The notes beneath the pieces were generated by a model, which saw nothing but the letters and a program-made list of their open reading frames with translations, was not told where the DNA came from and ran no database searches. From Flavonifractor sp. An100 (lineage in GTDB: Bacteria > Bacillota > Clostridia > Oscillospirales > Oscillospiraceae): a DNA stretch of 24,000 bases. Each line of letters starts with the position of its first letter. Position 1 is the first letter of the stretch. The stretch covers positions 47,770 through 71,769 of the forward strand of contig NZ_NFMA01000003.1 of the NCBI RefSeq assembly GCF_002161175.1, given 5' to 3'. Made by a program: the position numbers and the translations under genes. Shown here in pieces: positions 2,012 to 21,582 of this stretch.

Positions 2012-2046
2012 AAAGGGAAACCCGGATTCAGTCCAGGTTTCCCTTT
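2012..2046. terminator. Bidirectional rho-independent terminator between the convergent 1699..2004 gene and res
   Basis: AAAGGGAAACC (2012-2022) pairs with GGTTTCCCTTT (2036-2046). On the minus strand it is followed by TTTTGTGTTTTATT. Confidence 0.7.
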
Positions 2047-2069: not shown

Positions 2070-5000
2070 TTACAGCCGCTCACGCAGTTCTGTCCAGCTA
2101 GTGGCAGCCTCCAGCTCCACCCCAGCGTTCAAGGCTTTGAAATGCTCCTTGCCGCAGTGAATTTTCAGCTGCTCACTGGTTTTCAGGTGCATAAAGCTGG
2201 TGTCGCCCTTGGTTTCCAGGACAAAATACAGCTTTTCCTCACCATTCTTGTTGAGATACACAGCCCAGTCGGGGTTGTACGTGCCGATGGGGGTTTCAAT
2301 TTTGAATCGGCTGGGAATCTTGAAGAACATCTTCACATCCGGGTCGTTGTCCAAGGCCACGGCAACCGGCTTCTCCACCGTGGAGCTGTCGTAAACCACA
2401 TAGTCATAGACGCTGTGTTCCACCTTTACGGCGTTCCGATCCAGGTTAGCAAGCAACTCAGTGGTGTCGAAGATTTCCTGCACATAATATTCCTGGCCGT
2501 CCAGCTTCACATAGCGGATACCGTCGATAGCCAGGGCGTGGCGGTGGCTGCGGATCAGCTCTACGACTTGCTCCAGAAATGCCTCCGGGTTGTTGAGAAA
2601 GTCCTTGCACCGTCCACTCCCCACCAGAATCCGATTGATGGTGGCCGGGGTCAGCAGCGTTTCATCGCTGATGGCGGTAATAATGTCCGGCAGGGCCTGA
2701 TAGTCGTTGGCAATATCCATTGTCCGCATTTCCCGTTCTATGTGACTGATTCCAGCCTGTTCAATATGGATGTCGGCGGTCTGGGACACCAGTCGGGTTT
2801 TGGGGATATGGGGCATTTCCCGGATAACTTTGACGCAGTTCTCCACAAGCTGCTCGGTGTCAATGCTCACCCGATAAGCGGTTTTCTGCTTGATCTTGTT
2901 CCATAGCTCCAGGAACTCCGGGGAGAGCATGACTTGTTTGTTGAGCCGCACCACCACATCACGGGAAGCATCCCGCACCGGGGGCTTCCGGTCGGCATTG
3001 GCGATAATCTGCTCAAACCGCTCTCTGGCAGCTTCATATTTTTTCGGCAGGTCAAGGGTTCCGTTTTTCAGAGCGTTCTTCATGGTGTCCTTGACCTTGC
3101 CGGTGCTGGTGATATACCCCTTTTGCTCAAAATGTTGCAGCAGCTCGGTTGCTTCCTCGTGGGTGACAGTGTGTTCCTCCACCACGGTTTCCGTGTAGGT
3201 GGTTCCGGCCAGGGATTCCACCGCCACCGGCTGGGCCTTTTCTACGATTTCCTGTACCACTTCTTTGACAGGCTCCAGCGCCTTGGGCAGCTCGATTTCC
3301 CTGGGCTTGATTGCAGCGGCCACCTGACCAGCCTCATCAATCACACCAGCGGTTTTCAGGGCCGCTACTACCGCCTGGGCCTGTTCAGTCGTTACCTGCT
3401 TCTCTACGTCCCGACGGGCCTCATAGACCATGCCGGAAAACAAACTAAGCTGAAGCACACCAAACTTGACGCCGGTTTCGTCCTCGATCTCCTTTTGGAG
3501 GGTGGAGGCAAATTCGGCAAAGCTCTCGTTGGCCATAACGTGAAGGACGTTGATGTTCTTATCCTCGATACGCTCGCCGTCCTGGTTCACGCACAGGCGC
3601 AGGCCACGGCCCACCTTCTGACGGCAGGTAAAGGTGGACTTCTGCTCGATCAGAGTGCAAACCTGGAACACATTGGGGTTGTCCCAGCCTTCCCGCAGCG
3701 CCGAGTGGGAGAAAATAAACCGCAGCGGACACTCAAAGCTGAGAAGCCACTCCTTGTCCCGCATAATGGTGTTGTAGGTGTCATCGTCAGCTTGGGTGTC
3801 GCCTTTGGTATCCTTCAGACGGCCCTTCTTGTCCTGGGAGAAGTAGCCGTTATGCATCTTACTCACGTCTGTGGTAAACCGCTCCTGAAGGACGGCATAC
3901 TTGGGTTTCGCCATCAGCTCCTGGTAGCACTCCTCAAACATGGTGGCATAGATGCCGGGGGTGCCGTCCTCGTGGCGGTACTTGTCCACCTTGTCGATGA
4001 AGAACAGGGACAGTACCTTGATACCCTTGTCCAGATACCGCAGCTCTTTGTCCAGGTGGGTTTCGATGGTGCGCCGGATCTGCGCCTTCTTGACGATGTT
4101 CTCGTCTACATCGCCAATGGCCTTGCCCAGCTTGACCTCTTGGGTGTTGCCGAACTCGATATGCTCAAAGTCGGGGGTACAGTCGATTCCGGCGACGGTG
4201 TAGCCTTCATACAGTTCCCGTTGACCGGAGAGCAGGAACAAATCGTCTCCCGGCTTGACGGTCATGGCCTTTCGGGTCACGGCTCCGGTCTTGCCCTTCA
4301 CATCCAGTTCTACCCTGGCCTTAAAGCCCTTGTCGTTGCTGACAGAAAGCAGCCGCACATAGGCTTGGTTGAAGCCACCGGCAATCTGATTGGAGGACAC
4401 GGCGATCTGCTTCACCAGCCCCATCTGGTAGGCATCCACCGGAGTCAGGCGGTAAAGCAGATTGATTTTTTCTCGGTGGGTAGCGGAGTACCGCAACACA
4501 CACAGGGGGTTCAACGTGGCAATGGCTTCCTTGGCCTTGGGGGTGTTGTCTACACTCTGGGGTTCGTCGATGATGACGATAGGATGGGTATTCTGAATAA
4601 AGCCCATGGCCGTCTCGCCACCCAAACGATCTTGGGCCTGGTTGATAATGTTCTCCGCCTTCTTGAAAGCGTCGATGTTAATAATCATCACTTCGATGTT
4701 GGAGCTGGTGGCAAACTGCCGCACATCGGACAATTTGGCAGAGTTGTAGATGAAGTACCGGCACGGCACATTGTCATATTGCAGGCCGAAATGCTCCTGA
4801 GTGACTTGAAAGGACTTGTAGACGCCCTCCCGGATGGCCACCGACGGCACCACAATGACGAACTTGGTAAACCCGTACTTGCGGTTCAGCTCAAAGATGG
4901 TCTTGGTGTAAACATAGGTCTTGCCGGTGCCGGTTTCCATCTCGATACAGAACTGGCAGCGTGACGCTGCACCCAATGCGCCTTCGGCGGCGGGTTCCAA

Positions 5001-5228
5001 GTCAGTGAGTGGTAAACCATTCCGCTTCTGGACAGCGTGCATATTGGCGGTCAGTGTTTCCTGGTCGATGTAGAGGGCGTTGCCCTGGCCCAGTTCAGGG
5101 AGAAGGGAAGTCTGCCGATCATCCACCACGGAGAAGGTGCTTTTGGTTTTCTCCTGGCCAGTAAATAAGTCCACCACGGCGTTGACTGCGTCCGTTTGGA
5201 AGGCTTGATTTTTGAATTTAAGTTTCAT
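2070..5228 (-). CDS. res: Type III restriction endonuclease, Res subunit (SF2 helicase + C-terminal PD-(D/E)xK nuclease)
   Basis: 1052 aa. The N-terminus MKLKFKNQAFQTDAV is typical of Res. Motifs seen: Walker A METGTGKTYVY, motif II IVIIDEPQSV, motif VI QKVGRGLRL, and nuclease core YNPDWAVYL...LYFVLETKG. The SD AAGAGGTGA overlaps the upstream stop. Confidence 0.9.
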   Translation of the reverse strand: MKLKFKNQAFQTDAVNAVVDLFTGQEKTKSTFSVVDDRQTSLLPELGQGNALYIDQETLTANMHAVQKRNGLPLTDLEPAAEGALGAASRCQFCIEMETGTGKTYVYTKTIFELNRKYGFTKFVIVVPSVAIREGVYKSFQVTQEHFGLQYDNVPCRYFIYNSAKLSDVRQFATSSNIEVMIINIDAFKKAENIINQAQDRLGGETAMGFIQNTHPIVIIDEPQSVDNTPKAKEAIATLNPLCVLRYSATHREKINLLYRLTPVDAYQMGLVKQIAVSSNQIAGGFNQAYVRLLSVSNDKGFKARVELDVKGKTGAVTRKAMTVKPGDDLFLLSGQRELYEGYTVAGIDCTPDFEHIEFGNTQEVKLGKAIGDVDENIVKKAQIRRTIETHLDKELRYLDKGIKVLSLFFIDKVDKYRHEDGTPGIYATMFEECYQELMAKPKYAVLQERFTTDVSKMHNGYFSQDKKGRLKDTKGDTQADDDTYNTIMRDKEWLLSFECPLRFIFSHSALREGWDNPNVFQVCTLIEQKSTFTCRQKVGRGLRLCVNQDGERIEDKNINVLHVMANESFAEFASTLQKEIEDETGVKFGVLQLSLFSGMVYEARRDVEKQVTTEQAQAVVAALKTAGVIDEAGQVAAAIKPREIELPKALEPVKEVVQEIVEKAQPVAVESLAGTTYTETVVEEHTVTHEEATELLQHFEQKGYITSTGKVKDTMKNALKNGTLDLPKKYEAARERFEQIIANADRKPPVRDASRDVVVRLNKQVMLSPEFLELWNKIKQKTAYRVSIDTEQLVENCVKVIREMPHIPKTRLVSQTADIHIEQAGISHIEREMRTMDIANDYQALPDIITAISDETLLTPATINRILVGSGRCKDFLNNPEAFLEQVVELIRSHRHALAIDGIRYVKLDGQEYYVQEIFDTTELLANLDRNAVKVEHSVYDYVVYDSSTVEKPVAVALDNDPDVKMFFKIPSRFKIETPIGTYNPDWAVYLNKNGEEKLYFVLETKGDTSFMHLKTSEQLKIHCGKEHFKALNAGVELEAATSWTELRERL

Positions 5229-5234
5229 GCCTGT

Positions 5235-5753
5235 TCACCTCTTAAACAACCGCAGGAACAGGGTATAGTTCCATAAAAGATTATCTGCTTCAATGGAGTG
5301 CTGAATATTGATAATCTCATATTTGATTCCAACAATATTTTTACTGTCCATGTAGAGCTTGAGATTTTTATAGCTCTGCACAACATCAAGTTGATTTAGT
5401 ATTCCATTGTCAAGCACCTGATCTATTTTTGAAGTCAAGTTCCGATATATGTCTTGATTTCCTGTTTCACAATACAGGGCTGCTCGTTCGTAGGCGGTTT
5501 TTAGTGCTAATAGTGCATCTTTGCGTATGTCAATCTGCATTTTTCGCACACCAACAATAATTACTTCGTATATCGTAAAGCAAAAAGCAATCCGTTCAAT
5601 CCAAAGCCACAAAGTATTACCGCTGGAGATAGGGGAAAGGAATGTAGAAAGATAAGCAAGTAAGAATGGAATACCAATGTATTCGATTGTTCCAAGTAGG
5701 CAATGCACAGTGGTTTTTGTGATTACATGAAACCATTTTAGAGTGTTATTCAT
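5235..5753 (-). CDS. Uncharacterised membrane protein, 2 predicted N-terminal TM helices plus a helical C-terminal domain of about 100 aa
   Basis: 172 aa. Hydrophobic segments are VHCLLGTIEYIGIPFLLAYLSTFL and LWLWIERIAFCFTIYEVIIVGV. The ATG at 5753 is preceded by GAGGAAG, 7 nt after the mod stop. Its stop lies inside the res SD. It is AT-rich (line 5341-5400 is 21/60 GC by hand count). Confidence 0.6.
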   Translation of the reverse strand: MNNTLKWFHVITKTTVHCLLGTIEYIGIPFLLAYLSTFLSPISSGNTLWLWIERIAFCFTIYEVIIVGVRKMQIDIRKDALLALKTAYERAALYCETGNQDIYRNLTSKIDQVLDNGILNQLDVVQSYKNLKLYMDSKNIVGIKYEIINIQHSIEADNLLWNYTLFLRLFKR

Positions 5754-5760
5754 ATCTTCC

Positions 5761-7617
5761 TCACACCAGTTTCAGCTCAATTCCATGATCCCGCAGGATA
5801 TAGTAGGCATTTGCCATAGCGGTATCGTCGGCAAAGCTGTCACGGGAGATAATGATTTTAGCCGGAGCATATTCGGTCATTTGCTCCACGTCCTCCGGCT
5901 GCACATCTTCGGCCAGACAGACCAGCAGCAGGCAATCATCGCCCACGCCATAGACGGTCTTGTTGTGGATGGAGAACGGGGTCACGGAGTAGGTCAGCGG
6001 TACACCCAGCTTCAGCATGATTTCATAGATCATATCCAGGTCGGTACGCTCCGGCTTTACCCGGTGAATCATGGTATTCATTCGCTGGTACAGCAGGTCG
6101 AGCTGCTCGTCCTCAATGGGGGTAGCGTCCCAGGTTTTCAGATTGGAGGTGTCCAGCTTAAAGACACGGAAGCCCACGTCCAGGGGCTGCTTGTCCTCCT
6201 CCATAGTGACTTGGGCGTGTTCCTCCAGGATTTTCTTTCCGGCCCGCCGGATTCGCTCCTTGCCGATCTCGCAGATATTCTTGTACCCGGCCTTATGCGC
6301 CTCGCTCTTTTCGTCGCACAGCTCGGGAAGCTGCACCAGAATAAAGCGCCGGTTGCCGCCGTCCTCGGCATTGAGCTGCATCACCGCATGGGCGGTGGTA
6401 GCGGAGCCAGAGAAGAAGTCGAGAATAATGTCATCATTTGAAGTTGAAATCGCAAGACACCGCTGTATTAGTTCAACTGGTTTAGAAAAGTCAAATATCT
6501 TTCCGCCAAATAATTTTGTTAAGCCTTGCGCAGCAGATTGGGTATGACCAACCTCTGTGTTAGGCCACCATGTCCAAAGATTGCGTCCTGCTCTTTCCGA
6601 GAGATATGTTTTCTTTCTTGGAACACCCTTTCCATCTGCACCAAACCAGATTCGCCCAGCAGCTATTTCTTCGTTCATTTTATCCTGTGTATATCGCCAA
6701 CACAGGCTGTCAGGCAATTCGATAACCCGTCCAGCAGGTGTAACCATAGTATAAAATTGGTTTTTCGTTCCGTGACCAGCTTGTGCTGTGCAATCAGTCG
6801 AAATCCACGGCCCTCTGGGGTCGTTATCAGGATTTTTATAAGCTGCTTTGTCCTTTTCAGAAAATGGTAGCAGCTTTATAACTTGGTTACTATTCTGAAT
6901 GTTTTTTGTATAGACAAGGATGTATTCGTGCCCCGGGCTAATAACCCGTCGTGCATCTGGTGATGTACGTTTTTGCCATATAATCTGTGCTATAAAATTT
7001 TCCTCGCCAAACACTTCATCACAAACTTTTCGCAGGTTTGTGACCTCGTTATCATCAATCGAGATAAAAATCACACCATCATCCCGCAGCAGGTTTGCCG
7101 CCAGACGCAGACGGGGATACATCATGTTGAGCCAGTTGGTGTGAAAGCGGCCCATGGTTTCCGGGTTGCTCTTGGTGGTCTGCTGGGTCACTTCCTTGTA
7201 CCGGGCCATGGGATCGGCAAAATCATCGGCATAGACAAAATCGTTGCCGGTGTTGTACGGCGGGTCAATATAGAACATCTTCACCTTGCGGTAGTAGGCC
7301 GTTTGCAGCAGCTTCAAGACCTCCAGGTTGTCGCCCTCGATGTAGAGGTTCTGGGTGGTGTCCCAGTCCACGCTTTCCTCCTGGCAGGGGCGCAGGGTTC
7401 CGGTGGAACGCTTCTGGGCCAGCCGCAGGCAGTCCGCCTTGCCCTTCCACTCAAACTTGTACTTCTCAAAATCGTTGTCGATGTACTCGCCGCACAGAGA
7501 AAGCAGCTTGTCAATGTCCAGCTTGCCCTCGCTGACGCACTCCGGGAACACCGAGCGCAGCTTGTCCAGGTTGCTTTGTTCTATGTTCATGGAAAGTCCG
7601 TCAAGTATATCAGGCAT
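5761..7617 (-). CDS. mod: Type III DNA methyltransferase, Mod subunit (beta-class N6-adenine/N4-cytosine MTase)
   Basis: I trimmed the track ORF to the ATG at 7617, which has AGGAGG 9 nt upstream (7627-7632). Motif IV is FYIDPPYNTGNDF and motif I is ILDFFSGSATTAHAV, with a long variable region between them, as in Mod proteins. Confidence 0.9.
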   Translation of the reverse strand: MPDILDGLSMNIEQSNLDKLRSVFPECVSEGKLDIDKLLSLCGEYIDNDFEKYKFEWKGKADCLRLAQKRSTGTLRPCQEESVDWDTTQNLYIEGDNLEVLKLLQTAYYRKVKMFYIDPPYNTGNDFVYADDFADPMARYKEVTQQTTKSNPETMGRFHTNWLNMMYPRLRLAANLLRDDGVIFISIDDNEVTNLRKVCDEVFGEENFIAQIIWQKRTSPDARRVISPGHEYILVYTKNIQNSNQVIKLLPFSEKDKAAYKNPDNDPRGPWISTDCTAQAGHGTKNQFYTMVTPAGRVIELPDSLCWRYTQDKMNEEIAAGRIWFGADGKGVPRKKTYLSERAGRNLWTWWPNTEVGHTQSAAQGLTKLFGGKIFDFSKPVELIQRCLAISTSNDDIILDFFSGSATTAHAVMQLNAEDGGNRRFILVQLPELCDEKSEAHKAGYKNICEIGKERIRRAGKKILEEHAQVTMEEDKQPLDVGFRVFKLDTSNLKTWDATPIEDEQLDLLYQRMNTMIHRVKPERTDLDMIYEIMLKLGVPLTYSVTPFSIHNKTVYGVGDDCLLLVCLAEDVQPEDVEQMTEYAPAKIIISRDSFADDTAMANAYYILRDHGIELKLV

Positions 7618-8140
7618 CTTTTTGTACCTCCTGAGTTGTTGCTTTAGACACATTTAGATAGTCCGGGTGCTTATGGAGCAATTCAAATACCCACGGTTGA
7701 ATAAATCCTGGGGATAGCCCTCGTGGCGCAATGCTTGTTCCAGACGGCTGAGAAATAATTCCAAAAGTTTTGAGTTTTTGTGCCACCGGGTCCATCATTG
7801 AAAAGAGAATCGCTGTTTGTCCCTTGTCATAAAACTGTTTTAAATAGACTTTTTCTACATCTGAAAGATTCTTCAGAATGTATTTATATGTTCTCCATGT
7901 GTTGATTTTATTCCATTTCCGTTTGGTAAAACCAATAATGTATTTCATAATATAAGAAATGAGTAGCGAAGCAGATATTGCAAAAATAATAAAAAACCAT
8001 ATCCCATATTTTTCTCTAAATGCGATAATATCAAATGGCAGAAAGGTTGCAGGAAAGAAAAGCAAGAATATACTGGCAAAACAGATTGCAAAGGAGGCTC
8101 TAGCAGATGTATCTAAAACTTTTCCTATATCAAAATTCAT
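7610..8140 (-). CDS. SieB-like (superinfection exclusion protein B family) 2-TM membrane protein
   Basis: 176 aa. Two N-terminal TM helices are SFAICFASIFLLFFPATFL and GIWFFIIFAISASLLISYIMKYIIGF. These are followed by LKNLSDVEKVYLKQFYDKGQTAILFSMMDPVAQKLKTFGIISQ...FIQPWVFELLHKHPDYL. From memory, this pattern matches SieB-family proteins (LSxxEKxxLxxF...T..L...D..V..L...GII...qPW...L..nP). It is very AT-rich (line 7981-8040 is 15/60 GC). Confidence 0.5.
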   Translation of the reverse strand: MNFDIGKVLDTSARASFAICFASIFLLFFPATFLPFDIIAFREKYGIWFFIIFAISASLLISYIMKYIIGFTKRKWNKINTWRTYKYILKNLSDVEKVYLKQFYDKGQTAILFSMMDPVAQKLKTFGIISQPSGTSIAPRGLSPGFIQPWVFELLHKHPDYLNVSKATTQEVQKDA

Positions 8141-8143
8141 TTA

Positions 8144-10795
8144 TCACACCTCAACTTTAACCATAAATTCCCTCTGCACCTTTGCCGTCAGCTTTTCCTT
8201 GTCGGCAAAGGACTTTATTTTTTCTTCCAGCTCTACATCCAGGCGCATAGCGTCAAAGAACTGGCTCTCCTGCCGCTTCATGTATTCCTGCCGAAGCTGG
8301 GTTACTCTTTTCTGCGCAGACAGCCGTTTCAGCCGGTCGCCGGTGACGGCCTCCAGCTCCGCTTGGGCCTGCTGAACCTGGCTGTCTAGGGTGTTCAGCT
8401 CACGGCTCAATGCCGCCTTATCAGCGGACACCTGCTGCTTCATCCGTTCCATTGCCTCGGCCTGGGCGGGAGACAAACGCTCCAACTGCGCCTCCAGCAG
8501 CGCCTCCTTTGGCACCAAATTATCCAGCGGGTGGGGACGGCTGCTCCCTTTTAACCAGTGGGGAGATCTCCGCTCATCCTCGGTGTAATTCTCCACCGGC
8601 AGCTCCAGGATGCTGCGGCAAGCTGCATCGTCCAGGGCTTTGCCGCTCTCCGTTAGGCCACATAGTACGGCGTGTTCCGTGCGGCTGGAGCCTGATACCA
8701 GAGTCACGGTATAGAGGGCAATCTGGCACGGTTCCGGCGCTGTTGGAACAGTCAGCACTCCCTCATTGGCGCTCTCCAGCTCGTGGAGAATCCCACGGCC
8801 TATGATGCTGGACAGGGTAATCTGTCCGGCCTTGGGTTTGAAGTCCTTTGCCATGCCGTACATCTTCTGGCTGCGATAGGGCCGGTTTCTGCTCCCCGTC
8901 CAGTAGTAGAACAGCACCGGCAGCTCCCGGTACTTCGTGGCCGTAATGGTACGGCTGGCTTCGTCGATCACAAAATGGCAATCGTCGTTCTTTTCATTGT
9001 AACGGTTGAAGAACCATTTGGCAATCTCCCAAAGGTCGTTGTTCAGCTCCTGCCCACGGCGATTCACATACTTGGGGTTGATCTTCACTTTGTCGGCCAA
9101 CTCCTTGGTGAAGGTGGTAAACAGAATATCTTCCGCTGCGGAAACGGTCTGCCGGTTATCTTGCTCGTGGGTGTCCAGGGTCTGGCGGTATGCCTGCTCA
9201 ATCTGCGCCCTGGGCCGCAACCGCTGGGCAATGACCGGAAAGGCCGCTTTTACATCATCCGTAAAACCGCCCAGCACGTCATCGGTAATGCCAAAGACAC
9301 CGTCTGTCACCAGCATCCGCTTGTTGACCAGCTCCAGCTTGCGAACATCGGCAAAGTTGTTCTTGTCGATGAAGGCCACAGACAGCACATCGTTCTCCTG
9401 ACCCAGCCGGTGGCAGCGGTCGATACGCTGCTCCAGCTTTAAGGTGTTGTACGGCAAGTCGTAGTGGATGATGAAAGCAGCCTCCTCCAGATTGAAGCCC
9501 TTGGCACCGTTATCGGTGGAGATCAGCACCTCGCCGTCCTCTTTGAACCGGCGGATCACGGAGTAATCGGCGCTACCATTATAGGCCAAGGTGTAGTACT
9601 GCCCGGAAAGAAGATCCTGGAGCATCTTCTGGGTTTCCACGCTCTCGGTGAAGATAACGACTTTCCGTCCGGCTCCCGTTTTCTTCATCAGAGAAAAGCC
9701 CTGTTTGAGAACGGTCAGCAGCTCACCGGCCTTTGCATCCTGTGGGATGCTTTCTGCCACGGTCTGAATCTCTTGCCATTGGGTCAGCTCCTCCGCTGCG
9801 TTTTCCAACCCCTGGAGCCGCTTGACGATACCTTTGATGGTTTGCAAAATTGCCGCCGTAGAGGAACCCAGCAGGCCCAGCAGCCGTAGAGCCAGGTCAT
9901 ATTGGTTCATTTCGGGAAAGGCTCTCTTTTCCGGCTGGTTGATGTAGGCGTACAGCAGCTCATAGAGCTGCCGCTCTGCCTTGCCGGGGGTGTACTCCAC
10001 GGTCAACAGCACACGCTCCGTCACCTTGGCGTAGTGCTTGGCCTGGGAACGGAGGGTACGGAAACAATAGCGGCTGACCTGTTCGCTGAGTTCCGGGTAG
10101 TTCTCCGGTCGGCGCAGATACCGGGCCAGAAACTCTTTTTCTCCCGGCAGCAGCGTTTCGTCGATGAACCAGATCACGCCGTACAAGTCCATAATGTTCT
10201 TTTCGATGGGGGTGCCGGTCAGCAGCAGCTTGAAGGAGTCTCCGGCGATCCGCTTAAGGGCCTTGGCCTGTTTGTTGTCCTCTTGGTAGACCGGGGACAG
10301 GGCGTTGGCTTCTTCAAATACCGTCAAGTCCCAGTTGACCACCTTTGCGGCCTCCTCGTTGTCGGCGGCAAAGTCATAGGTCGTAATGACAATGGCATCC
10401 TGAATAAAGGCGTTGGGATGGTCGGGGGCACTGTAGGCCTGCCATTCTTTGCGGCTGGTCAGAACCACATAGGGAACGGTATAGAACCGATCCAGCATTT
10501 CCGTCCATTGGTACAGCAGGTCTGCATTGGGAATGACCAGCAGAATCCGGCTGCATCCCTCCAGCCACTTTTGATTGATGACCAGCATGGCCTCGTGGCT
10601 CTTGCCCATACCGGCTTCATCGCACAGGACAGCACCTTTCTGATAGGGGGAACGCAGGGCAAAGCTGGCCGCTGCGATCTGAAACGGATAGATTTCAATA
10701 TCCGATGAAGCAAAGACCGGGAGGAACTGTTCTTCCTCGGGTAGCTGCTCCAACAACCGAGCCTTGTAATAGGCATGAAATGGTGTTTGCAGCAT
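8144..10795 (-). CDS. SNF2-family (SF2) ATPase/helicase with a long C-terminal extension ending in a coiled coil
   Basis: 883 aa. Motif I is LCDEAGMGKSHEA. Motif II is the variant DLTVFEEANAL. Motif III is LLLTGTPIEKN and motif VI is QRIDRCHRLGQ. The last 110 aa or so are heptad-like and Q/E/K/R/L-rich. An AAGGAGGG SD lies upstream of the ATG at 10795. Confidence 0.85.
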   Translation of the reverse strand: MLQTPFHAYYKARLLEQLPEEEQFLPVFASSDIEIYPFQIAAASFALRSPYQKGAVLCDEAGMGKSHEAMLVINQKWLEGCSRILLVIPNADLLYQWTEMLDRFYTVPYVVLTSRKEWQAYSAPDHPNAFIQDAIVITTYDFAADNEEAAKVVNWDLTVFEEANALSPVYQEDNKQAKALKRIAGDSFKLLLTGTPIEKNIMDLYGVIWFIDETLLPGEKEFLARYLRRPENYPELSEQVSRYCFRTLRSQAKHYAKVTERVLLTVEYTPGKAERQLYELLYAYINQPEKRAFPEMNQYDLALRLLGLLGSSTAAILQTIKGIVKRLQGLENAAEELTQWQEIQTVAESIPQDAKAGELLTVLKQGFSLMKKTGAGRKVVIFTESVETQKMLQDLLSGQYYTLAYNGSADYSVIRRFKEDGEVLISTDNGAKGFNLEEAAFIIHYDLPYNTLKLEQRIDRCHRLGQENDVLSVAFIDKNNFADVRKLELVNKRMLVTDGVFGITDDVLGGFTDDVKAAFPVIAQRLRPRAQIEQAYRQTLDTHEQDNRQTVSAAEDILFTTFTKELADKVKINPKYVNRRGQELNNDLWEIAKWFFNRYNEKNDDCHFVIDEASRTITATKYRELPVLFYYWTGSRNRPYRSQKMYGMAKDFKPKAGQITLSSIIGRGILHELESANEGVLTVPTAPEPCQIALYTVTLVSGSSRTEHAVLCGLTESGKALDDAACRSILELPVENYTEDERRSPHWLKGSSRPHPLDNLVPKEALLEAQLERLSPAQAEAMERMKQQVSADKAALSRELNTLDSQVQQAQAELEAVTGDRLKRLSAQKRVTQLRQEYMKRQESQFFDAMRLDVELEEKIKSFADKEKLTAKVQREFMVKVEV

Positions 10796-10834: not shown

Positions 10835-10863
10835 ATTATGTCAGATTTTAGGGGAAAAGGCAA
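10835..10863 (-). promoter_or_regulatory. Candidate promoter TTGCCT-17 nt-CATAAT for the SNF2-mod-res operon
   Basis: On the minus strand the -35 is at 10863..10858 and the -10 at 10840..10835, with a 17-nt spacer. It lies between the strong terminator at 10873-10915 and the SNF2 start. Confidence 0.4.
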
Positions 10864-10964: not shown

Positions 10965-12506
10965 TCAAATTTCAGTATAAGAAATGCTATACTCAAAAAG
11001 ACGCATTTGGGAATCCTGTTTGACTTTTCTTTTAAGTTCAGCAGTAGGGCTATTCAAACATATAAGGCCGTAAACGTGTTGTCCGGACTTCGCAATATCT
11101 GCTTCTACCCATTCAATATATGTTTTAGTTTGTGTGTACGCATCATCGTAACCGGAGTCTTTTTTTAGCTCAATCACATAAAGGTCGTTGTTATTATCTG
11201 TTGCCAAAATATCAAGTCTACCAGTACGAAGAATAAATTGTCTGCCGTACACGCCCCTTTTTTGATAGACCTTTAGTGAAAGACCAAAAACCGGAATGCC
11301 CTGTTCCATTCTCTGAATTAGTTCATCTTCAAGAAGTTTTTCACTGGTAAATTGATGCTTTTTTATTCCTATGTTAATCGTGGAAGTGTCTGCTGCACTA
11401 TCTTGTGAATCTGTATCCACATCACATTTTTTGGTTGCCAGGGGACGTCCAATTCTAGCAACGAGTTGTTTTGACACCTTATATCCACTTTTCTCAACAA
11501 ATTCTTTTGCCTTATCTTGCTGACCTAATGCCAAATAAGTACGAACGAGATTGTTTGCCGCAAAGCGTGTATCTCTTTTCTCCGATAAACATTTGCGAAA
11601 TACATCTTCAGCATCATGGTATTTCTTCTGCTTAAACAAACAATATCCCAGGTTATTCAAGGCGTTTTCTGCCTCTGGAAAAACTTCTAATGTTTTTCTG
11701 TAATATGCTTCTTCTAACTGATAGTTGCGCTTTTTTCCATAGCACCAAGCCATCCAAAAGTAAATATTGTCCGTATAGAATATGCCTACACGATCTTTTA
11801 CATCCTCATATTGTTCTAAATACGATAGAGCGTTGTTCCACATCTGCATATTATAATAGGTGTATCCCAATAGTTCTTTCGCCAAATATATATCTCTGTT
11901 GGTTTGCAACACTCGCAACAGTGCATCTGCAATATCTTCATTTTTTGTCCCGTAATAAACGCTTTCCAATGCCTCACACATTTCTGGAATACCTATACAT
12001 ACGCCGGGTCTATCGAGCAGTTCTCGCAAATAACTCCACATTCCAGGAATGCCTTCTTTTAGCGGTAAGACCAGACAATAAATAAAGTCTGAGCATGACA
12101 TTTCTTCATCTTCAGCCAAATAACGCTTTATCTTTGCAGGAACATACTGTGCGAGCCTTTCGTTAATTGCTCCAGATTTTCCGGTAAGTAAGTCAATTAC
12201 TGCAAAATATATTTGCTTGATGGGGTCACCGTCCGATAATCTTATAACAGAATTTCGGTATTCAATAAAGCAGGGATCTTTCATAACATCGCATTTCATT
12301 AGCTCTGAATATCTGAGATACCCCATTGTCAAGCTATCTAAAAGCAAGTCGCAGTATTTACTCTGCAATTCGTCATGAAATACAGGGGAGGCAGATATTA
12401 TAACATTTCGGCATTCTTGAAAATTAGGTTCCTTGGAAAAATCAAGTTGGTCATATGCTTGACAAAGCTTGTTTTGATAATGAATAAGTTCCTTTGATTC
12501 TGCCAT
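10965..12506 (-). CDS. TPR-repeat protein with a C-terminal PD-(D/E)xK nuclease domain (NucS/DUF91-like)
   Basis: 513 aa. TPR-like repeats span roughly aa 200-345 (e.g. AYYRKTLEVFPEAENALNNLGYCLFKQKKYHDAEDVFRKCL). The C-terminus GRLDILATDNNNDLYVIELKKD carries a D...ExK core (nt about 11163-11213), then YIEWV...VYGLICL. AGGAGG lies 8-9 nt upstream of the ATG at 12506. Confidence 0.7.
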   Translation of the reverse strand: MAESKELIHYQNKLCQAYDQLDFSKEPNFQECRNVIISASPVFHDELQSKYCDLLLDSLTMGYLRYSELMKCDVMKDPCFIEYRNSVIRLSDGDPIKQIYFAVIDLLTGKSGAINERLAQYVPAKIKRYLAEDEEMSCSDFIYCLVLPLKEGIPGMWSYLRELLDRPGVCIGIPEMCEALESVYYGTKNEDIADALLRVLQTNRDIYLAKELLGYTYYNMQMWNNALSYLEQYEDVKDRVGIFYTDNIYFWMAWCYGKKRNYQLEEAYYRKTLEVFPEAENALNNLGYCLFKQKKYHDAEDVFRKCLSEKRDTRFAANNLVRTYLALGQQDKAKEFVEKSGYKVSKQLVARIGRPLATKKCDVDTDSQDSAADTSTINIGIKKHQFTSEKLLEDELIQRMEQGIPVFGLSLKVYQKRGVYGRQFILRTGRLDILATDNNNDLYVIELKKDSGYDDAYTQTKTYIEWVEADIAKSGQHVYGLICLNSPTAELKRKVKQDSQMRLFEYSISYTEI

Positions 12507-14948: not shown

Positions 14949-15158
14949 TTATCCAATCAGAAGTTTTCTCGCCTGTTCTCCATTCCTGCACCTTCGGTGA
15001 AGGATATACCAAGCCGCTTCTTTCCACTCCCAATCTGAGTAGGCGGTAATATCAACGTCGTTCAGCTGAGGAAAATGCCGATCAGATTTGGGAAGGAATC
15101 TCAAATCAGATATGTTGGCGCAGTTTTTCTGCTTTGCCAGTAGCGCCACAAGTTCCAT
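14949..15158 (-). CDS. Small hypothetical protein (69 aa) coupled to the peptidase gene
   Basis: Its ATG overlaps the peptidase stop (TAATG at 15156-15160), and GGAGGTG lies just upstream. No recognisable motif. Confidence 0.45.
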   Translation of the reverse strand: MELVALLAKQKNCANISDLRFLPKSDRHFPQLNDVDITAYSDWEWKEAAWYILHRRCRNGEQARKLLIG

Positions 15159-17323
15159 TACGCACCTCCATAAAAGACTGGTCTGCCGATGGTAGTAAAT
15201 CCCTCCTGTCCAGTGATGACCACATTGTTGGCGCTGAAGGCACAGTGGACGATCAGAATATTGCCGCTCTCGTCCCAGCCGCAGACGATTCCAACATGGG
15301 TATCCTCCGGGTAAAAAACCAGATCACCGATCTGCGCCTCCGCCCAAGAGATACTGGTACAGTAGCCGTGCTGCGCCATAGCGCCACCGCCATGACCGAT
15401 GATGTACTCACCGCCTGTGGCGTTGTAAAACACCCAGTCCACGAACCCGGAACAGTCCAGGCCATAGGGCCGGTAGGTGCCCGTGGTGCTGTTCCCTGCC
15501 GCCGTGACCTCTGTGAGCCGCCCCCAGCGGCTGTCCCAGCCCAAGACAAGGCTTTTACCGCCCCAGAAGTAGTTGACCTTCCCCACAAGGGAACAGGCCG
15601 CACGGATGACCGCCTCACGCTCTGGGGACAGATCCTCTGGCAAATTCAAAAGGACATCCTTGGCATCGGCGGTTATGTTCATCAGACTTCCAATCAAGTC
15701 CGCCAACATTTCACGTTCCTCCAGCAATTCCTGAAGCATCTCAAGTTGCTGAGTCGTAAAGTTATATTCCGCAGCCGCTTCTTCTGCCGTTTTGCCTGTA
15801 ATGGTGATGTGGAGGATTCGCTCTGTGTATCCGTCATCGGCTCCTTCACTGCTTTCCGGGTGGTCAATTTCGTCTACCTCATGGATAATGGTATTCATAT
15901 CCCAAAAGACTGCCTCCAGCCGGTCGATCCGGTTTTCATCCAGCGTAACTACGTCTGTGGCGTCTGTGTCATTGCTGCCGGCAACCTTTACCGCAAAGAC
16001 AGCGAGTACATCAACCCAGTCCGCTCCGGTTCCCTCAATCACAACATCGTCATAGCTCTCCGCTGTCTGCAATTCCTCCAGGGTTTCATTGTAGGCATAG
16101 TTGACCTGGGCCACGGCAACCGATACGGGTACACCGTCCTGACTGCCACCCCCCGCAAAGAAAATGCCGAAGGGGGACGCTGCAATAGCGGCCACAAGGA
16201 TCAGGCAGAGGAGCACGATCAGCAGGATCACACCTCCGCCAGCAGCCAGAACACCCTTAACCGCAGCCAGGGCCACCCGCCCGACTGCCTGGGCAAACCG
16301 CATGGTGAGTTTTCCAGCCTTGACCGCAGCCTGTTTTGTCCGCTGACCGGCCTTCTTGACCATTTCTTTCTGTGCCCTCCGGCGGGCCAGGGCCTTAGCC
16401 TGCTGCGCCGGGGACAGCTGCCGCTGGACGGTCTTGCTGCGCTGAAAGGGTGTCTTTCTTTTTTGCAGCGCCGTCCCCAGTTTTGGCCGGTTTCCATCCA
16501 CTTTAAGAGAGCGGGTCACTTTACTGCTGGGTTTCTGGCCCAAAGTTTTTGGGTTCCTGTCTTTTCCGGCTGGTATCCTAAAATCCGGTGTTTCTCTCTG
16601 GCTCACGGGGGACTGAACACCGTTCCGCCGAGGCTTGTCAAAAGAACCGGCGTTTTTATTGCCCGCATTAGGAAGGGGGCGTTCGCCGCCACCAGGGGGT
16701 TCGTGTCTGTTTGGTTCTGTTAAGTGGGATTGATCTCTCGTACTAAATTTAATCTGCTCCGCTTTCTTTGCCTTTGACCGCTGAGCATCCTTGATGGCTT
16801 TTTTGCGTCCGAGTTCCTTTTGCCTTCCTCCTATATTTTGTGTGTCGCCATTTAGTCGAGCACTATTAGTTGTGGAAAAATCGGTGGAAGTTGTGGACAA
16901 GTCATGCCGATAGTATTTTGTGGGCGATTCGGCCCTTCCATAGCTGTCGAAATGGTTTGAATCCAAAGGGGTGTCAGTGTTTGTTTCCAACACTTCGCCG
17001 GGGGTGTTTGGAGGTTGAGAACTGCTTGTCTGAGGCTGTTCTGACACAGTGTTCTTATCCTGTGTCACTTTCTTCCGGCGACGTCGAACAAACTCTTTTT
17101 TTACCTTTTGCTTGAGGGCGTCACCTGCGGTTCTTGCCACCCGCTTTCCGCCGCCCTCCACATGATCGGTAGCATAACGCACCGGGTCTTTCTGGCCCGG
17201 TGCGTTGCGTTCTTGCTGCTCCTGGTACTTCTCCTTGATGATGGACTTGGCTTCTTTGGGAACAAAGCCGGAAGTTTTCACTTTCGGCTTATCCATGGAG
17301 CCTTTTTTCTTAATATCAGCCAT
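15158..17323 (-). CDS. Conjugation-associated cell-wall hydrolase, NlpC/P60 (C40) peptidase domain (CD1108-family-like)
   Basis: 721 aa. About 350 aa of basic low-complexity N-terminus precede one TM helix (VILLIVLLCLILVAAIAASPF). The C-terminal catalytic motifs are GLDCSGFVDWVFYN and HVGIVCGWDESG. Confidence 0.85.
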   Translation of the reverse strand: MADIKKKGSMDKPKVKTSGFVPKEAKSIIKEKYQEQQERNAPGQKDPVRYATDHVEGGGKRVARTAGDALKQKVKKEFVRRRRKKVTQDKNTVSEQPQTSSSQPPNTPGEVLETNTDTPLDSNHFDSYGRAESPTKYYRHDLSTTSTDFSTTNSARLNGDTQNIGGRQKELGRKKAIKDAQRSKAKKAEQIKFSTRDQSHLTEPNRHEPPGGGERPLPNAGNKNAGSFDKPRRNGVQSPVSQRETPDFRIPAGKDRNPKTLGQKPSSKVTRSLKVDGNRPKLGTALQKRKTPFQRSKTVQRQLSPAQQAKALARRRAQKEMVKKAGQRTKQAAVKAGKLTMRFAQAVGRVALAAVKGVLAAGGGVILLIVLLCLILVAAIAASPFGIFFAGGGSQDGVPVSVAVAQVNYAYNETLEELQTAESYDDVVIEGTGADWVDVLAVFAVKVAGSNDTDATDVVTLDENRIDRLEAVFWDMNTIIHEVDEIDHPESSEGADDGYTERILHITITGKTAEEAAAEYNFTTQQLEMLQELLEEREMLADLIGSLMNITADAKDVLLNLPEDLSPEREAVIRAACSLVGKVNYFWGGKSLVLGWDSRWGRLTEVTAAGNSTTGTYRPYGLDCSGFVDWVFYNATGGEYIIGHGGGAMAQHGYCTSISWAEAQIGDLVFYPEDTHVGIVCGWDESGNILIVHCAFSANNVVITGQEGFTTIGRPVFYGGA

Positions 17324-17326
17324 GGC

Positions 17327-19681
17327 TTATCCCTCGCCCGGACGAGTGCTCATCAAGCGGTACAGTTCCGTATCCTTGGGAAAGTCGTTGACAAAGGGGA
17401 CGATGGCCCCGCCGACTTTGATCAGACCGTGACCGGCGGGAGCATTATTGACATGATCCATCTGTGTATCCGAGGTGCCCAGCAGTTTGGCCAACTCCAT
17501 CCGATCCGTAGCCGCCTGGTTGAACATGAGGAGGAATTCACTGTTTGCAAACATGAGTTTTGCCGTTTCGGATCGCAGACACTCCTCCACGTTCTGAGTG
17601 ATCCCGGTCAGCATCGCACCATACTTCCTGAACCGTTTCCAACACTTATAGAGGAATTCACCGCTGTACTGGTTGATACTGCTCTGGCCCCTCCCAGAGC
17701 CGCTGGAAAAGAACAGATAAATCTCGTCGATATAGACGTGAGTGTACCGGCCCTGCTGCCGGTTACGGATGACACGGTTGAAAATGGCGTCCAGCATGAC
17801 CAACAGGCCCACGGGCTTGAGGTTCTCGCCCAAATCCTGAATGTCAAAGCAAAGCAGCCGGTTATTGGAGTTGATATTGGTCTGATGAGAGAACACATTG
17901 AGGGTGCCGGTGGTAAACAGCTCCAAGGCCAGGGCAATGTCGTGGGCGGCAGGCTCTTTCTGCATCATCAGATCACGGTGCAAGTCCTTCAAAGTGGGAG
18001 GCTCCCCCTTAAAGTCCTTGATGTATTCCCGGTAGATATTGGCCGTACAGCGGTCGATAATGGATTTTTCTTTGGCCCCAATTTCCTGATTGCCCATCAG
18101 CTGCTCACATAGAGACATGATGAACTCGCTTTTCAGTACCAGGGGATTCTTGCCGTCACCATATTCCGCCGACAAGTCCAGGGCGTTGATGTAACTGCAC
18201 TGGTCGCTGGAGGCCGAGATGGTGATGACCTCACCTCCCAGCGCCCGAACAAGAGGGCCGTACTCTCGCTCCGGGTCAACCACAATGATGTCGTGGTCTG
18301 TGCCAAGCATCAGGGAGGTCAGCTCCTGCTTTGCTGCCATGGACTTACCGGAGCCAGAGACACCCAGGATAAAGCCGTTGCCGTTGAGTAGGTTGGCCCG
18401 GTTGCAGATAATGAGGTTGTGGGACACGGCATTGACACCATAGTAAACGCCGCCCTTATCCTGGATCTCCTGGGCCTTGAAAGGCATGAGGACGGCGGTA
18501 CTTTCGGTGGTCAGGCTACGCATAGCGTCCACCCGCTGGAGGCCGTAGGGCAGGACAGTGTTAAGTCCGTCCTCCTGCTGGTATTTGAGGGTGGAGATCT
18601 GACAACCACGGCCCTGGCCAATAGAAACCAGAGTTTCGGTGTCCTGATCCAGCTGCTCCAGCGTGTCGGCCAGATGGGTGATGGTCACCTGTCCCAGCAT
18701 CAGGCCCTGGTCACGGGTGGTTACATCGTCCATCAGTTCACGGGTCTGGAGGCGGCTTTGCTCCAGGTGGTACGGGATGGTGGCGTTGAAATTGTTGAGG
18801 GAATTCTGCCGCTGGGTAAAGCGGCCTACGTCCGATTCAATGGCCATAATCCGCCGCTGGATCTCCTTCACCACTTCATCGGTGGGAATGGGCAGAAGGT
18901 TGATGGAGATCATCATGTTCCGGGGCAGGTCACTCAGCTCCGTAATCATCTCATCCTTAATGAAACTGGCATAATCCCGGAGAAACAGGACACGGCCCAC
19001 CTGATCTCCAATCTCATAGTGGTCTTTATAGAAAGTCATGCAGTCCGGGGCAATGGCGTCCCGGAAGTCATTACCCCTGTGAGCGATGCGGTTGAGATCG
19101 AAGTAAAAGTCCGGGTCATTGGGACGGAAGAAGTCATGGAACAGCCGCATACGCTCCACCACGTTGGTATCTCGCACCATAACATCCATGCGAGACAGGT
19201 AGGTGCTCAATTCTGTGCCCACACGATTAAAGAAGGCACGGGCCTCCTCAATGTTTTTCCGCTCCACAGAGATGGTGATGTACTTCTCCTGGGTGAGATT
19301 GTTGCTGTTTGCCGCATTTTCTGTCAGAATGTCATTGTATTCCACCCGGTAACGATCCTTGCCGTCGCCAGCCATCTGCATCAGCAGGTTGCGGCTAAAC
19401 TCCTGCTGGTTCATGGTGCGGTTAAACAGGGTGATCTTCACCAGCGCCCGCACCGGCAGGGAGTTGAGGAAAGCGCAGTAGCTGAGGAACAGCGCCTCCT
19501 TCTTTTCCGGCCCAGCTACCGCATAATTGACATCAAAAAATCTCCAGGTCTTGGAGTAAAGACCGGCGACTTCAAAGACACCATCCTTATGCACTTTTTT
19601 GATGGGGATTGACTGCTGGACGCTGCGGGGGATAAAAAACTTTTCGAGATTGGGGTTCTTCCCCTTAAAGGGCTTAATCAT
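17327..19681 (-). CDS. VirB4-like conjugal transfer ATPase (CD1110-family-like)
   Basis: 784 aa. Walker A is GVSGSGKSMAAKQE and the Walker B region is YTHVYIDEIYLFF. The position between the PrgI-like gene and the peptidase is typical. Confidence 0.9.
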   Translation of the reverse strand: MIKPFKGKNPNLEKFFIPRSVQQSIPIKKVHKDGVFEVAGLYSKTWRFFDVNYAVAGPEKKEALFLSYCAFLNSLPVRALVKITLFNRTMNQQEFSRNLLMQMAGDGKDRYRVEYNDILTENAANSNNLTQEKYITISVERKNIEEARAFFNRVGTELSTYLSRMDVMVRDTNVVERMRLFHDFFRPNDPDFYFDLNRIAHRGNDFRDAIAPDCMTFYKDHYEIGDQVGRVLFLRDYASFIKDEMITELSDLPRNMMISINLLPIPTDEVVKEIQRRIMAIESDVGRFTQRQNSLNNFNATIPYHLEQSRLQTRELMDDVTTRDQGLMLGQVTITHLADTLEQLDQDTETLVSIGQGRGCQISTLKYQQEDGLNTVLPYGLQRVDAMRSLTTESTAVLMPFKAQEIQDKGGVYYGVNAVSHNLIICNRANLLNGNGFILGVSGSGKSMAAKQELTSLMLGTDHDIIVVDPEREYGPLVRALGGEVITISASSDQCSYINALDLSAEYGDGKNPLVLKSEFIMSLCEQLMGNQEIGAKEKSIIDRCTANIYREYIKDFKGEPPTLKDLHRDLMMQKEPAAHDIALALELFTTGTLNVFSHQTNINSNNRLLCFDIQDLGENLKPVGLLVMLDAIFNRVIRNRQQGRYTHVYIDEIYLFFSSGSGRGQSSINQYSGEFLYKCWKRFRKYGAMLTGITQNVEECLRSETAKLMFANSEFLLMFNQAATDRMELAKLLGTSDTQMDHVNNAPAGHGLIKVGGAIVPFVNDFPKDTELYRLMSTRPGEG

Positions 19682-20019
19682 TTCCTTTTTCCCTCCTGTC
19701 GCTTGGTTTCAGGGATAAAGCGGTTTTGTGATTTCCAAACACGGTGATTGGACAGCAGAAAGCAGGACTTGAACCACACCCAGGCGAATTTCTCCAGCTT
19801 CATGCCGTTATACTGGAAAAAGCCAGCCACCGCAAAAGGAGCGGCTCCCAGAATACAGATCCAGCTCACCGATTCCCGGCCCATGAATCTGCTAAGTAAA
19901 GCATACAGCCCCAGAGCGGTTCCAACCGACAGGACGGAGCAGAAAAACTGCCGCATGGTCAGGCCGAAGAAGATAGTTTCCTGATAGGTCAGGATTTCCT
20001 TGTTGATTTTGATTTCCAT
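19678..20019 (-). CDS. PrgI-family small membrane protein of Gram-positive T4SS
   Basis: 113 aa. It begins KINKEILTYQETIFFGLTMRQFFCSVLSV and has two hydrophobic helices. Its stop overlaps the VirB4 start. Confidence 0.65.
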   Translation of the reverse strand: MEIKINKEILTYQETIFFGLTMRQFFCSVLSVGTALGLYALLSRFMGRESVSWICILGAAPFAVAGFFQYNGMKLEKFAWVWFKSCFLLSNHRVWKSQNRFIPETKRQEGKRK

Positions 20020-20022
20020 AGA

Positions 20023-20862
20023 TCACACTCCAAACATTTCTTTGGCAATGCGGTCGGCGGCTTTTACAAGCCCAACCAGCACCAAAAGGTTGAAAATCGT
20101 TTCGCCCAGATAGCTCCAGACCTGAGTGATAACGGATGTTTCTGCGTCAATGACGGGTGTTCCGCTGGAAACATAGGCCGTAAAGATAATGCAGGCCAGC
20201 ACCACCACGGCCCCCTCCATGCAGACACCGATATAGCTTTTGAGAAAGGACTTGCCGATAAAGGAAGTGCTTTCTCCCGCAAAGGAAGATAGAGCAATGG
20301 GCGAAAGAGCCGCATACATATAGAGCTTGAAAAATCGGCCATAGACCGTGAGGATCATAATAAATGCCAATACAGTGATAAACAAGCTGCCCAGCAATGT
20401 GACCAGCCACAGAGGGATGCTCTCCAGGAAACCCAGGCTGTTGATGGCATCTATCATTTCCGTTGGCATGGTAATAGATGCTCCATCGGCACCGCCGATA
20501 CTGCCCGCTGCGGTTGCCACAATGCCATTGCATACCGCAAAGATTTTCGTCAGAAAATCCAGTCCGTAGGTAATGGCCACCTTCGCCAACACAAATTGGA
20601 TCAGGTGGCGCACCACATATTCCGGTCGTTGGAAGTCCCGGAAGCTGGCAGCACTCCGAAAAAGGCTGATAGCAAAGAACAGTACCAGAAGGCCATAACC
20701 GATGGCCTGCATACCGCCATTGATGGTGACGATAGTGCTCCAGATCGTGCCGCCCTTGAAGGTTTCCGGCGACTGGGTCAGCAGGCCCCACATTTCCTCC
20801 ATTTTGGTGTTCCATGTGGTAAATGCGTTTTGAAGGTTGTCTACAACCCAGTTGTTGTCCAA
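20023..20862 (-). CDS. Polytopic membrane protein, VirB6/TrbL-like (CD0415/CD1112-family-like)
   Basis: 279 aa with several TM segments. The TTG start at 20862 is preceded by GGAGGTGA with a 5-nt spacer. The other-frame ORF 20147..20872 was rejected. Confidence 0.7.
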   Translation of the reverse strand: MDNNWVVDNLQNAFTTWNTKMEEMWGLLTQSPETFKGGTIWSTIVTINGGMQAIGYGLLVLFFAISLFRSAASFRDFQRPEYVVRHLIQFVLAKVAITYGLDFLTKIFAVCNGIVATAAGSIGGADGASITMPTEMIDAINSLGFLESIPLWLVTLLGSLFITVLAFIMILTVYGRFFKLYMYAALSPIALSSFAGESTSFIGKSFLKSYIGVCMEGAVVVLACIIFTAYVSSGTPVIDAETSVITQVWSYLGETIFNLLVLVGLVKAADRIAKEMFGV

Positions 20863-20916
20863 ATTGATTCACCTCCAGGTGATAGAGTTTTGGATATGGT
20901 TAGATTATCTGCCGCC

Positions 20917-20945
20917 TTGATAATGTGGCGTAATTGTGATAAAAT
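20917..20945 (+). promoter_or_regulatory. Strong promoter TTGATA-17 nt-(TGa)TAAAAT for the TA cassette
   Basis: The -35 is at 20917-20922 and the -10 at 20940-20945, with an extended TG at 20937-20938. The AAAGGGGG SD and the ATG at 20974 follow. Confidence 0.55.
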
Positions 20946-20973
20946 ATAGCCATGTCAGAAAGGGGGCTTTTCT

Positions 20974-21538: not shown

Positions 21539-21540
21539 GC

Positions 21541-21574
21541 GCAGCCGGTCTGTCAGCGATGGCAGACCGGCTGC
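21541..21574 (+). terminator. Rho-independent terminator of the TA cassette, shared with the convergent Maff2-like gene
   Basis: GCAGCCGGTCTG tcagcgatgg CAGACCGGCTGC is followed by TTCTTTTCTC. Confidence 0.75.
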
Positions 21575-21582
21575 TTCTTTTC

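Follow-up and report, generated by a model that had tools for sequence, protein, structure and literature searches.

Recurrent placement of a SieB-family gene ahead of mod in helicase-linked type III restriction operons, a candidate abortive-infection cargo

Few phage-exclusion genes have been known for as long as SieB, which has been treated as a prophage function. When phages superinfect, the SieB protein of phage P22 brings macromolecular synthesis to a halt partway through their lytic cycle (PMC10883804). Analysis of a 24,000-nucleotide (nt) stretch of the Flavonifractor sp. An100 genome (contig NZ_NFMA01000003.1, positions 47,770 to 71,769, hereafter the window) revealed a member of the SieB family in a restriction-modification (R-M) operon. 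The open reading frame (ORF), 176 amino acids (aa) long and located at 7610-8140 on the minus strand, sits between a SNF2 helicase gene and the type III methyltransferase gene mod, on the same strand as both, within a series of five co-oriented minus-strand genes in the window (SNF2, the 176-aa gene, mod, a 172-aa gene and res). We lean slightly towards the view that this gene works on its own as an abortive-infection module of the SieB type, carried ahead of mod as cargo and co-expressed with restriction as a second layer of defence.

Several described systems provide a framework for comparison. PrrC, an abortive-type effector found mostly inside R-M operons such as the EcoprrI type IC locus, is a soluble ATPase-nuclease physically coupled to the R-M proteins. 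The window protein is instead a predicted two-helix membrane protein without a nuclease or NTPase motif, and some of its relatives are free-standing. Defence genes are frequently found embedded in Hma, BREX, DISARM and type I R-M operons; several of these genes have been validated, and PrrC is "almost exclusively" embedded (Payne, Hughes, Fineran and Jackson 2024, 10.1101/2024.01.29.577857); SieB is absent from the main text of that study, and type III R-M is not among the host systems listed there as mined. The window gene shares with these embedded genes a co-oriented position nested in a helicase-methylase-nuclease system, sister slots that hold other defence candidates (Fic/PDC-S72 or SIR2-HerA) and homologues that also occur non-embedded, but the proportion of SieB genes that are embedded is much higher than for most cargo and no PADLOC v2 model matches the protein. 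The host operon is of the helicase-linked type III kind (a SNF2/DrmD-like helicase with or without DUF4391, plus Mod and Res), and DUF4391-bearing relatives of this backbone carry a 213-aa SieB type in the same slot, although the conserved backbone itself does not include a SieB-like gene. A SNF2/DrmD-like helicase has been added to IetAS in a report that mentions neither type III systems nor SieB (PMC13069673), and our literature search found no paper linking SieB or PF14163 with restriction operons. Embedding itself has already been described; the recurrent, swappable SieB slot in helicase-linked type III operons of gut Clostridia is new.

The assignment to the SieB family, first made in a sequence-only reading of the window, was confirmed by profile searches. 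PF14163 (SieB) matched the 176-aa protein with 75.2 bits (E = 5.4e-21; gathering score 26 bits) over profile positions 3-147 of 147, and a six-frame search of the genome with this profile gave the same result for the gene. Lambda SieB and P22 SieB themselves scored 103.5 and 101.4 bits, so the model is really built around these proteins. PHROG 6399, annotated as SieB superinfection exclusion, also matched (E = 4.9e-5). In the BFVD library of viral structures, the best Foldseek match of the predicted structure was P22 Q38660 (195 aa; E = 3.2e-3, probability 1.00, TM score 0.42-0.46, 119 columns), a modest fold match between predicted structures on both sides; Q38660 is described as the "initial portion of N operon", which is where P22 sieB lies. 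The matches establish family membership alone, not an exclusion or abortive function. Taken by themselves, the SieB identity of the gene and its embedding in the operon are claims in which we have high confidence.

Comparison with P22 and lambda SieB showed both shared and divergent properties. The proteins share PF14163, a similar size (176 aa here, 184-192 aa in the phages) and a layout of two N-terminal hydrophobic segments (12-47 and 55-77 in P22 SieB) followed by a soluble C-terminal domain, and the alignment stays in register at an NL(S/T)xxE motif that follows the second helix. In contrast, pairwise identity is only 13-18%, and comparison of the subfamily alignment with the single lambda and P22 sequences by hhalign gave weak, non-significant matches (E = 0.006 and 0.025, probability 2-6%), the alignments being in register over the second helix and the motif. 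An invariant GFIQPWVF segment is specific to the window subfamily. The genomic settings also differ: the phage genes lie in the early-left (N-operon) region of lambdoid prophages by the anti-terminator gene, whereas the window gene lies not in a prophage but in a SNF2/type III R-M operon beside Gram-positive type IV secretion system (T4SS) genes, carried by a conjugative element in a gut bacterium of the class Clostridia. Searches with the gene gave no match in a plasmid collection and, in a phage collection, one weak partial tblastn hit to an unannotated faecal phage contig. Finally, P22 sieB contains an internal start, that of esc, at codon 25. The window gene has no in-frame ATG, GTG or TTG preceded by a Shine-Dalgarno sequence and no conserved internal methionine, and an Esc-type self-immunity product was rejected for this gene.

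Topology prediction supported the two N-terminal transmembrane helices proposed in the earlier reading. Kyte-Doolittle analysis identified two hydrophobic segments at approximately residues 11-42 and 43-71, and an AlphaFold model built with 16 homologues (pLDDT 81.6) has two long N-terminal helices followed by a helix-strand-helix-strand-helix domain. The first predicted transmembrane helix (about residues 15-37, encoded at 8030-8098; Kyte-Doolittle maximum 2.17; AlphaFold helix 5-28) contains a conserved LLFFP...LPF motif, and the second (about residues 47-69, at 7934-8002; maximum 2.31; AlphaFold helix 39-90) is followed by a stretch rich in lysine and arginine. Since residues 70-90 contain seven lysines and arginines and no aspartate or glutamate, the positive-inside rule predicts that both termini are cytoplasmic (N-in/C-in); the C-terminal domain (residues 72-176, at 7613-7927), cytoplasmic on this topology, includes NLSxxEK and the invariant GFIQPWVF. 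Modelled alone, this domain gave pLDDT 83.5 and pTM 0.71. Foldseek searches of the Protein Data Bank (PDB) with the full-length model and with the C-terminal domain alone returned nothing below E 0.1 (best E = 0.12), and a sequence search of solved structures with the 176-aa protein found no match. The non-significant PDB lists consist mostly of winged-helix proteins (eS10, the MarR family, ORC and CodY), and we treat the idea that the C-terminal domain may be winged-helix-like as a lead only.

The 176-aa ORF is a real gene under purifying selection. Every peptide stretch quoted in the earlier reading was found in its translation, and the coupling proposed there of its start to the SNF2 gene and of its stop to mod was seen at both junctions. 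At the upstream junction (8141-8152, minus strand), GAGGTG (8152-8147) is followed by the SNF2 stop codon TGA (8146-8144), a TAA and the ATG of the SieB-family gene (8140-8138), which leaves a 3-nt gap after the SNF2 stop. At the downstream junction (7610-7631, minus strand), GGAGG (7631-7627) lies 9 nt 5' of the mod ATG (7617-7615), which is overlapped by the SieB-family TGA at 7612-7610 (ATGCCTGA). The same 8-nt overlap occurs in two related contigs (L011 and L013), and an 11-nt overlap in a third (L018). The ORF listing contains an alternative in-frame mod ATG further upstream, at 7653; the ATG at 7617 is the likely start because it is preceded by a Shine-Dalgarno sequence and is kept in homologues (MPD...). 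In a collection of 5.8 billion proteins the gene has 20 homologue clusters with identity up to 99%, and the ratio of nonsynonymous to synonymous substitution rates (dN/dS) against three relatives was 0.13-0.17. An alignment of 16 sequences at 43-76% identity contains 28 invariant columns, including those of GFIQPWVF. At E <= 1e-3, a subfamily profile picked out 1042 of 1.84 billion representative clusters; only 15 of the 1042 reach E <= 1e-30, and nearly all are 160-200 aa long and matched end to end.

The base composition of the gene differs strikingly from that of its neighbors. The earlier counts of 15/60 G+C in 7981-8040 and 36/60 in 8401-8460 were exact, and over its full length the gene has 35.6% G+C compared to 56-58% in the flanks. 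At third codon positions the G+C fraction (GC3) is 0.316, compared to 0.716 for the SNF2 gene, 0.720 for res and 0.74-0.80 for the ends of mod. A gap at synonymous sites indicates foreign origin and not merely a hydrophobic amino-acid make-up, and GC3 thereby ruled out the amino-acid bias of membrane proteins as the cause of the AT-richness. In every linked locus, regardless of host G+C content, the GC3 of the SieB-like gene was also lower than that of the adjacent mod (for example, 0.24 vs 0.39 in L007 and 0.34 vs 0.51 in L018), a bias that could stem from an origin at low GC combined with frequent transfer, or from selection for codons rich in A and T.

A survey of metagenome contigs, in which lineages were judged distinct by sequence identity and which is not a random sample, revealed that the placement recurs. 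A SieB-like gene was found upstream of a type III mod gene in approximately 13 of 20 distinct contexts, usually after a SNF2 helicase gene, and never in the slot between mod and res. The sequence-only reading had called the position inside an R-M operon unusual; the presence of SieB beside type III mod was borne out, but its rarity has to be softened, as the pre-mod position is the commonest context of the lineage. The closest group (L011; L013, a Faecalibacterium metagenome-assembled genome; and L063) has the order SNF2-SieB-Mod-X-Res. In L001-L006 the order is SNF2-SieB-91 aa-Mod, followed by DUF6978, DUF1828/1829 and a HamA-plus-helicase pair (Hachiman-like) ahead of Res; in L007-L010 a Schlafen/AlbA_2 ATPase gene precedes SieB-Mod; and L018-L020 have SieB-Mod-Res. 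Members of the 176-aa subfamily also lie just 5' of mod in L064/L065 and L067/L068. Other members of this subfamily are not next to mod (L022 and L069), and in L016 the gene lies between two recombinase genes with no mod adjoining. On two unrelated contigs, a free-standing SieB-like gene lies just 5' of a gene for a TIR_2-AAA_31/ParA-like ATPase (L014:8983-11071, from Anaerocolumna jejuensis, and L021:4328-6207), a pair that may be a separate two-gene defence candidate.

Two further SieB types occupy the same position, such that three deeply diverged subfamilies (approximately 20-30% identical) share it. The second, of about 213 aa and roughly 20% identical to the window protein, was first met in a class-level genome survey. 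In L032 its gene overlaps mod and is followed by a GNAT gene, and other contigs have the orders SNF2-DUF4391-SieB-Mod-157 aa-Res (L071/L072), SNF2-DUF4391-SieB-SIR2-HerA-Mod (L073) and SNF2-DUF4391-SieB-210 aa-Mod-Shedu-like-Res (L075); in L076 it is free-standing, beside integrase genes and a gene for a trypsin-like protease (Trypsin_2). L078, a long-read metagenome contig in which the large genes are all split, holds a degraded copy of the same gene order. A DUF4391-SieB fusion in the protein collection (P0202, 287 aa), considered as evidence of coupling, comes from this contig; because SNF2, mod and res are all broken there, the fusion was rejected as spurious, the product of a frameshift or of misassembly. 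The third type is a 238-aa ORF directly 5' of mod in another family of the phylum (L079), with 30% identity over the C-terminal 84 residues.

Among species-representative genomes the family is rare: matches to PF14163 above the cut-off were confined to 3 of the 398 other genomes sampled from the class and 3 of the 400 sampled from the phylum, and two of these six non-self matches are genes immediately 5' of mod. Viewed from the other partner, 58 of 399 class genomes contain Mod homologues, the SieB-mod pair is present in only two of these 58, and no SieB-like ORF lies within 1.5 kb of any of the 29 best non-self mod loci. Seen from SieB the association is thus strong, and seen from Mod it is weak, indicating that SieB is an accessory and not part of the backbone.

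Nucleotide comparison of closely related operons points to exchange of the gene as a cassette. The window and L063, L013 and L011 are 85-100% identical in 100-nt bins over SNF2 and the 5' end of mod, but identity falls to 71-83% over the SieB-family gene (8118-7619), where the other three share another allele that is 93-99% identical among themselves. The synonymous substitution rate (dS) is 0.86-1.02 in this gene compared to 0.31-0.35 in SNF2, about threefold higher, whereas dN/dS is equal, meaning that the SieB cassette has a deeper history than its flanks. These sequence patterns point to allele exchange by recombination at conserved flanks and not to diversifying selection. Positive selection was rejected as an explanation of this divergence, because dN/dS is no higher than in the flanks and the rise is in dS. 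In a maximum-likelihood tree, whose branches are long and whose deep placements are unsafe, mod-linked and free-standing members are interspersed; the tree requires five changes between the two states, no better than with shuffled labels.

The slot itself accepts other genes. In two sister operons, G400 (L034) and G254 (L047), the position between the 3' end of SNF2 and mod is occupied by a gene for a 360-369-aa protein with Fic and winged helix-turn-helix domains (L034:387-1469 and L047:2250-3359), which matches PADLOC PDC-S72 at 1e-166 and 1e-180. The locus shows three properties of embedded cargo: co-oriented nesting, differing slot content in sister systems and homologues outside the host system. 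In L073, the 213-aa SieB-type gene and a SIR2-like/HerA (DUF87) pair lie together between DUF4391 and mod (L073:6001-10302). The region between mod and res is a second cargo slot, and its content differs even among near-identical operons: a 172-aa hydrophobic protein with two predicted transmembrane helices in the window (5235-5753, minus strand), a 183-aa protein in L011 (5336-5887), a 305-aa RES-domain protein in L013 (11406-12323), RhuM/PDC-S05 in L034 (3364-4359), the DUF6978, DUF1828/1829 and Hachiman-like genes in L001 (6445-11929) and a Shedu-like SduA_C protein in L075 (9264-10031).

We propose that the window gene is a mobile cargo gene in the first position of the swappable slot between SNF2 and mod of a helicase-linked type III operon on a conjugative element, and that it encodes an inner-membrane protein of the SieB family, anchored by a pair of transmembrane helices near its N-terminus, with the remaining 100 or so residues forming a cytoplasmic C-terminal domain that may resemble a winged helix. 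Since the gene would be transcribed together with the rest of the operon and its translation is coupled to that of mod, the protein would be produced in every situation in which the restriction system is. The cytoplasmic domain would detect some signal of a phage that restriction has failed to stop, and the membrane helices would then shut the cell down, through loss of membrane function and of macromolecular synthesis, before progeny form. We infer the anti-phage function, the trigger, the membrane-level effect and the independence from the R-M proteins, the abortive layer by analogy with P22 SieB, and we give the abortive function of the gene an even chance.

Several considerations weigh against this proposal. 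The abortive step is a pure analogy to SieB across 13-18% identity, and we know of no mechanism established for SieB itself since the 1970s. The winged-helix reading of the presumed sensor domain depends on Foldseek matches with E >= 0.12, and no PADLOC or NCBIfam model matches the 176-aa protein. At the linked loci, the N-termini of the Mod proteins share 75-92% identity, and this identity correlates with that of the SieB proteins (Spearman 0.66, over non-independent pairs), indicating that a large part of the linkage stems from common inheritance within a single Mod clade, on which exchange is superimposed. In addition, the SieB-like gene is always first in the pre-mod slot and never occupies the mod-res slot, a positional preference that exceeds what a purely autonomous cargo model predicts and that could reflect functional coupling or co-inheritance with one Mod clade.

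Functional coupling is the essence of the strongest alternative, a guard similar to PrrC, in which the SieB-family protein is held inactive by Mod, Res or the SNF2 protein and released when a phage anti-restriction factor disables the complex. Occupation of one position by three diverged subfamilies and translational coupling to mod both speak for such a guard, and PrrC in type I R-M loci is a precedent for an almost exclusively embedded gene (Payne et al. 2024). In contrast, free-standing relatives are found near recombinases, a TIR-ATPase, a trypsin-like protease and unrelated genes, and in the tree they are nested among the linked members; other cargo separates the SieB-like gene from mod in L073 and L075; sister operons have a different gene or none in the slot; and what lies upstream differs between loci (SNF2, SNF2 plus DUF4391, or a Schlafen/AlbA_2 ATPase). 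Embedding in R-M loci is enriched but not exclusive, in about 13 of 20 contexts and two of six species-representative matches. We consider guard-type control unlikely, while still giving it appreciable weight. Of the two functional ideas in the earlier reading, two-layer cargo is favored over control by the R-M proteins because free-standing relatives exist. A more specific proposal along the same lines, that helicase-linked type III systems have in SieB proteins their own dedicated abortive guard, the counterpart of PrrC in EcoprrI, with the winged-helix-like domain monitoring the Mod/Res/SNF2 complex or engaged DNA and the helices shutting the cell down once restriction is neutralised, seems to us rather improbable.

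A role outside defence is also conceivable, either as a membrane-anchored winged-helix tether or controller-like regulator of R-M or in a function of the conjugative element such as entry exclusion. The SieB-family gene precedes mod, much as controller genes are often placed ahead of R-M genes; winged-helix DNA-binding proteins dominate the Foldseek lists of the C-terminal domain; and the window carries genes for VirD4, a VirB4-like ATPase, PrgI and an NlpC/P60 hydrolase. The winged-helix matches are non-significant, however, linked loci also occur away from T4SS genes (for example, L007), and the characterised relatives are abortive-infection proteins. Moreover, the scarcity of the pair at mod loci (two of 58 genomes with Mod, none of the 29 best mod loci) implies that SieB is dispensable for type III function, and a non-defence accessory role is doubtful. 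That the gene is a functionless hitch-hiker, a recent AT-rich fragment kept only by its operon position, would fit its foreign composition (GC3 0.32 vs 0.72) and the rarity of the family in the phylum but is very improbable given the low dN/dS (0.13-0.17), saturated dS in distant pairs, intact frames, 28 invariant columns including GFIQPWVF and a position conserved across subfamilies.

As embedded cargo, the gene broadens the embedded-defence-gene principle so that it covers type III systems and a family of membrane effectors absent from current defence-finder databases. The exchange of cargo alleles between near-identical operons bears on how such slots are filled, and the compact five-gene operon is suited to distinguishing layered defence from guard-type coupling; the guard reading, if true, would provide the first mechanistic handle on SieB.

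The remaining genes of the operon are those expected of a helicase-linked type III system. The first encodes an 883-aa SNF2-family helicase (8144-10795, minus strand; PF00176, SNF2-rel_dom, and PF00271, Helicase_C), with partial matches to PADLOC DrmD (2.9e-92) and HmaA (1e-30). The Mod methyltransferase gene (5761-7617, minus strand) matches PF01555 and PADLOC MTase_III (7.5e-220), and the Res endonuclease-helicase gene (2070-5228, minus strand) matches PF04851, PF19778 and PADLOC REase_III (E = 0). The 172-aa gene between them is a second AT-rich cargo gene (GC3 0.370); its product has a hydrophobic N-terminus and no match in Pfam, PADLOC, PHROGs or NCBIfam. A promoter-like site (TTGCCT-17-CATAAT with an extended TG; 10835-10863, minus strand) lies 5' of the SNF2 gene, as a consensus match only, and a terminator-like hairpin with a 15-bp stem and a T run (2012-2046, minus strand) lies just 3' of res; counts of promoter- and terminator-like sites in the window were not above those in shuffled sequence, and of these sites the res terminator alone carries weight. 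No promoter- or terminator-like site was found on the minus strand inside the SieB-family gene.

Beyond the operon, the window contains Gram-positive conjugation genes (15158-23698, minus strand) encoding the NlpC/P60 hydrolase, VirB4-like ATPase, PrgI and VirD4 coupling protein. Because these T4SS genes flank the defence region, the operon is considered cargo of a conjugative element. Within mod, the nucleotide alignments to the three closest operons break in the central region (6438-6969, minus strand), where GC3 is 0.336 compared to 0.74-0.80 at the ends, a pattern that fits a swapped target-recognition domain. In an AT-rich islet adjoining the operon, a gene at 10965-12506 (minus strand) encodes a TPR protein with a C-terminal NucS/HSDR_N-like nuclease domain, and this protein matches the PADLOC candidate PDC-S02 (7.6e-16).

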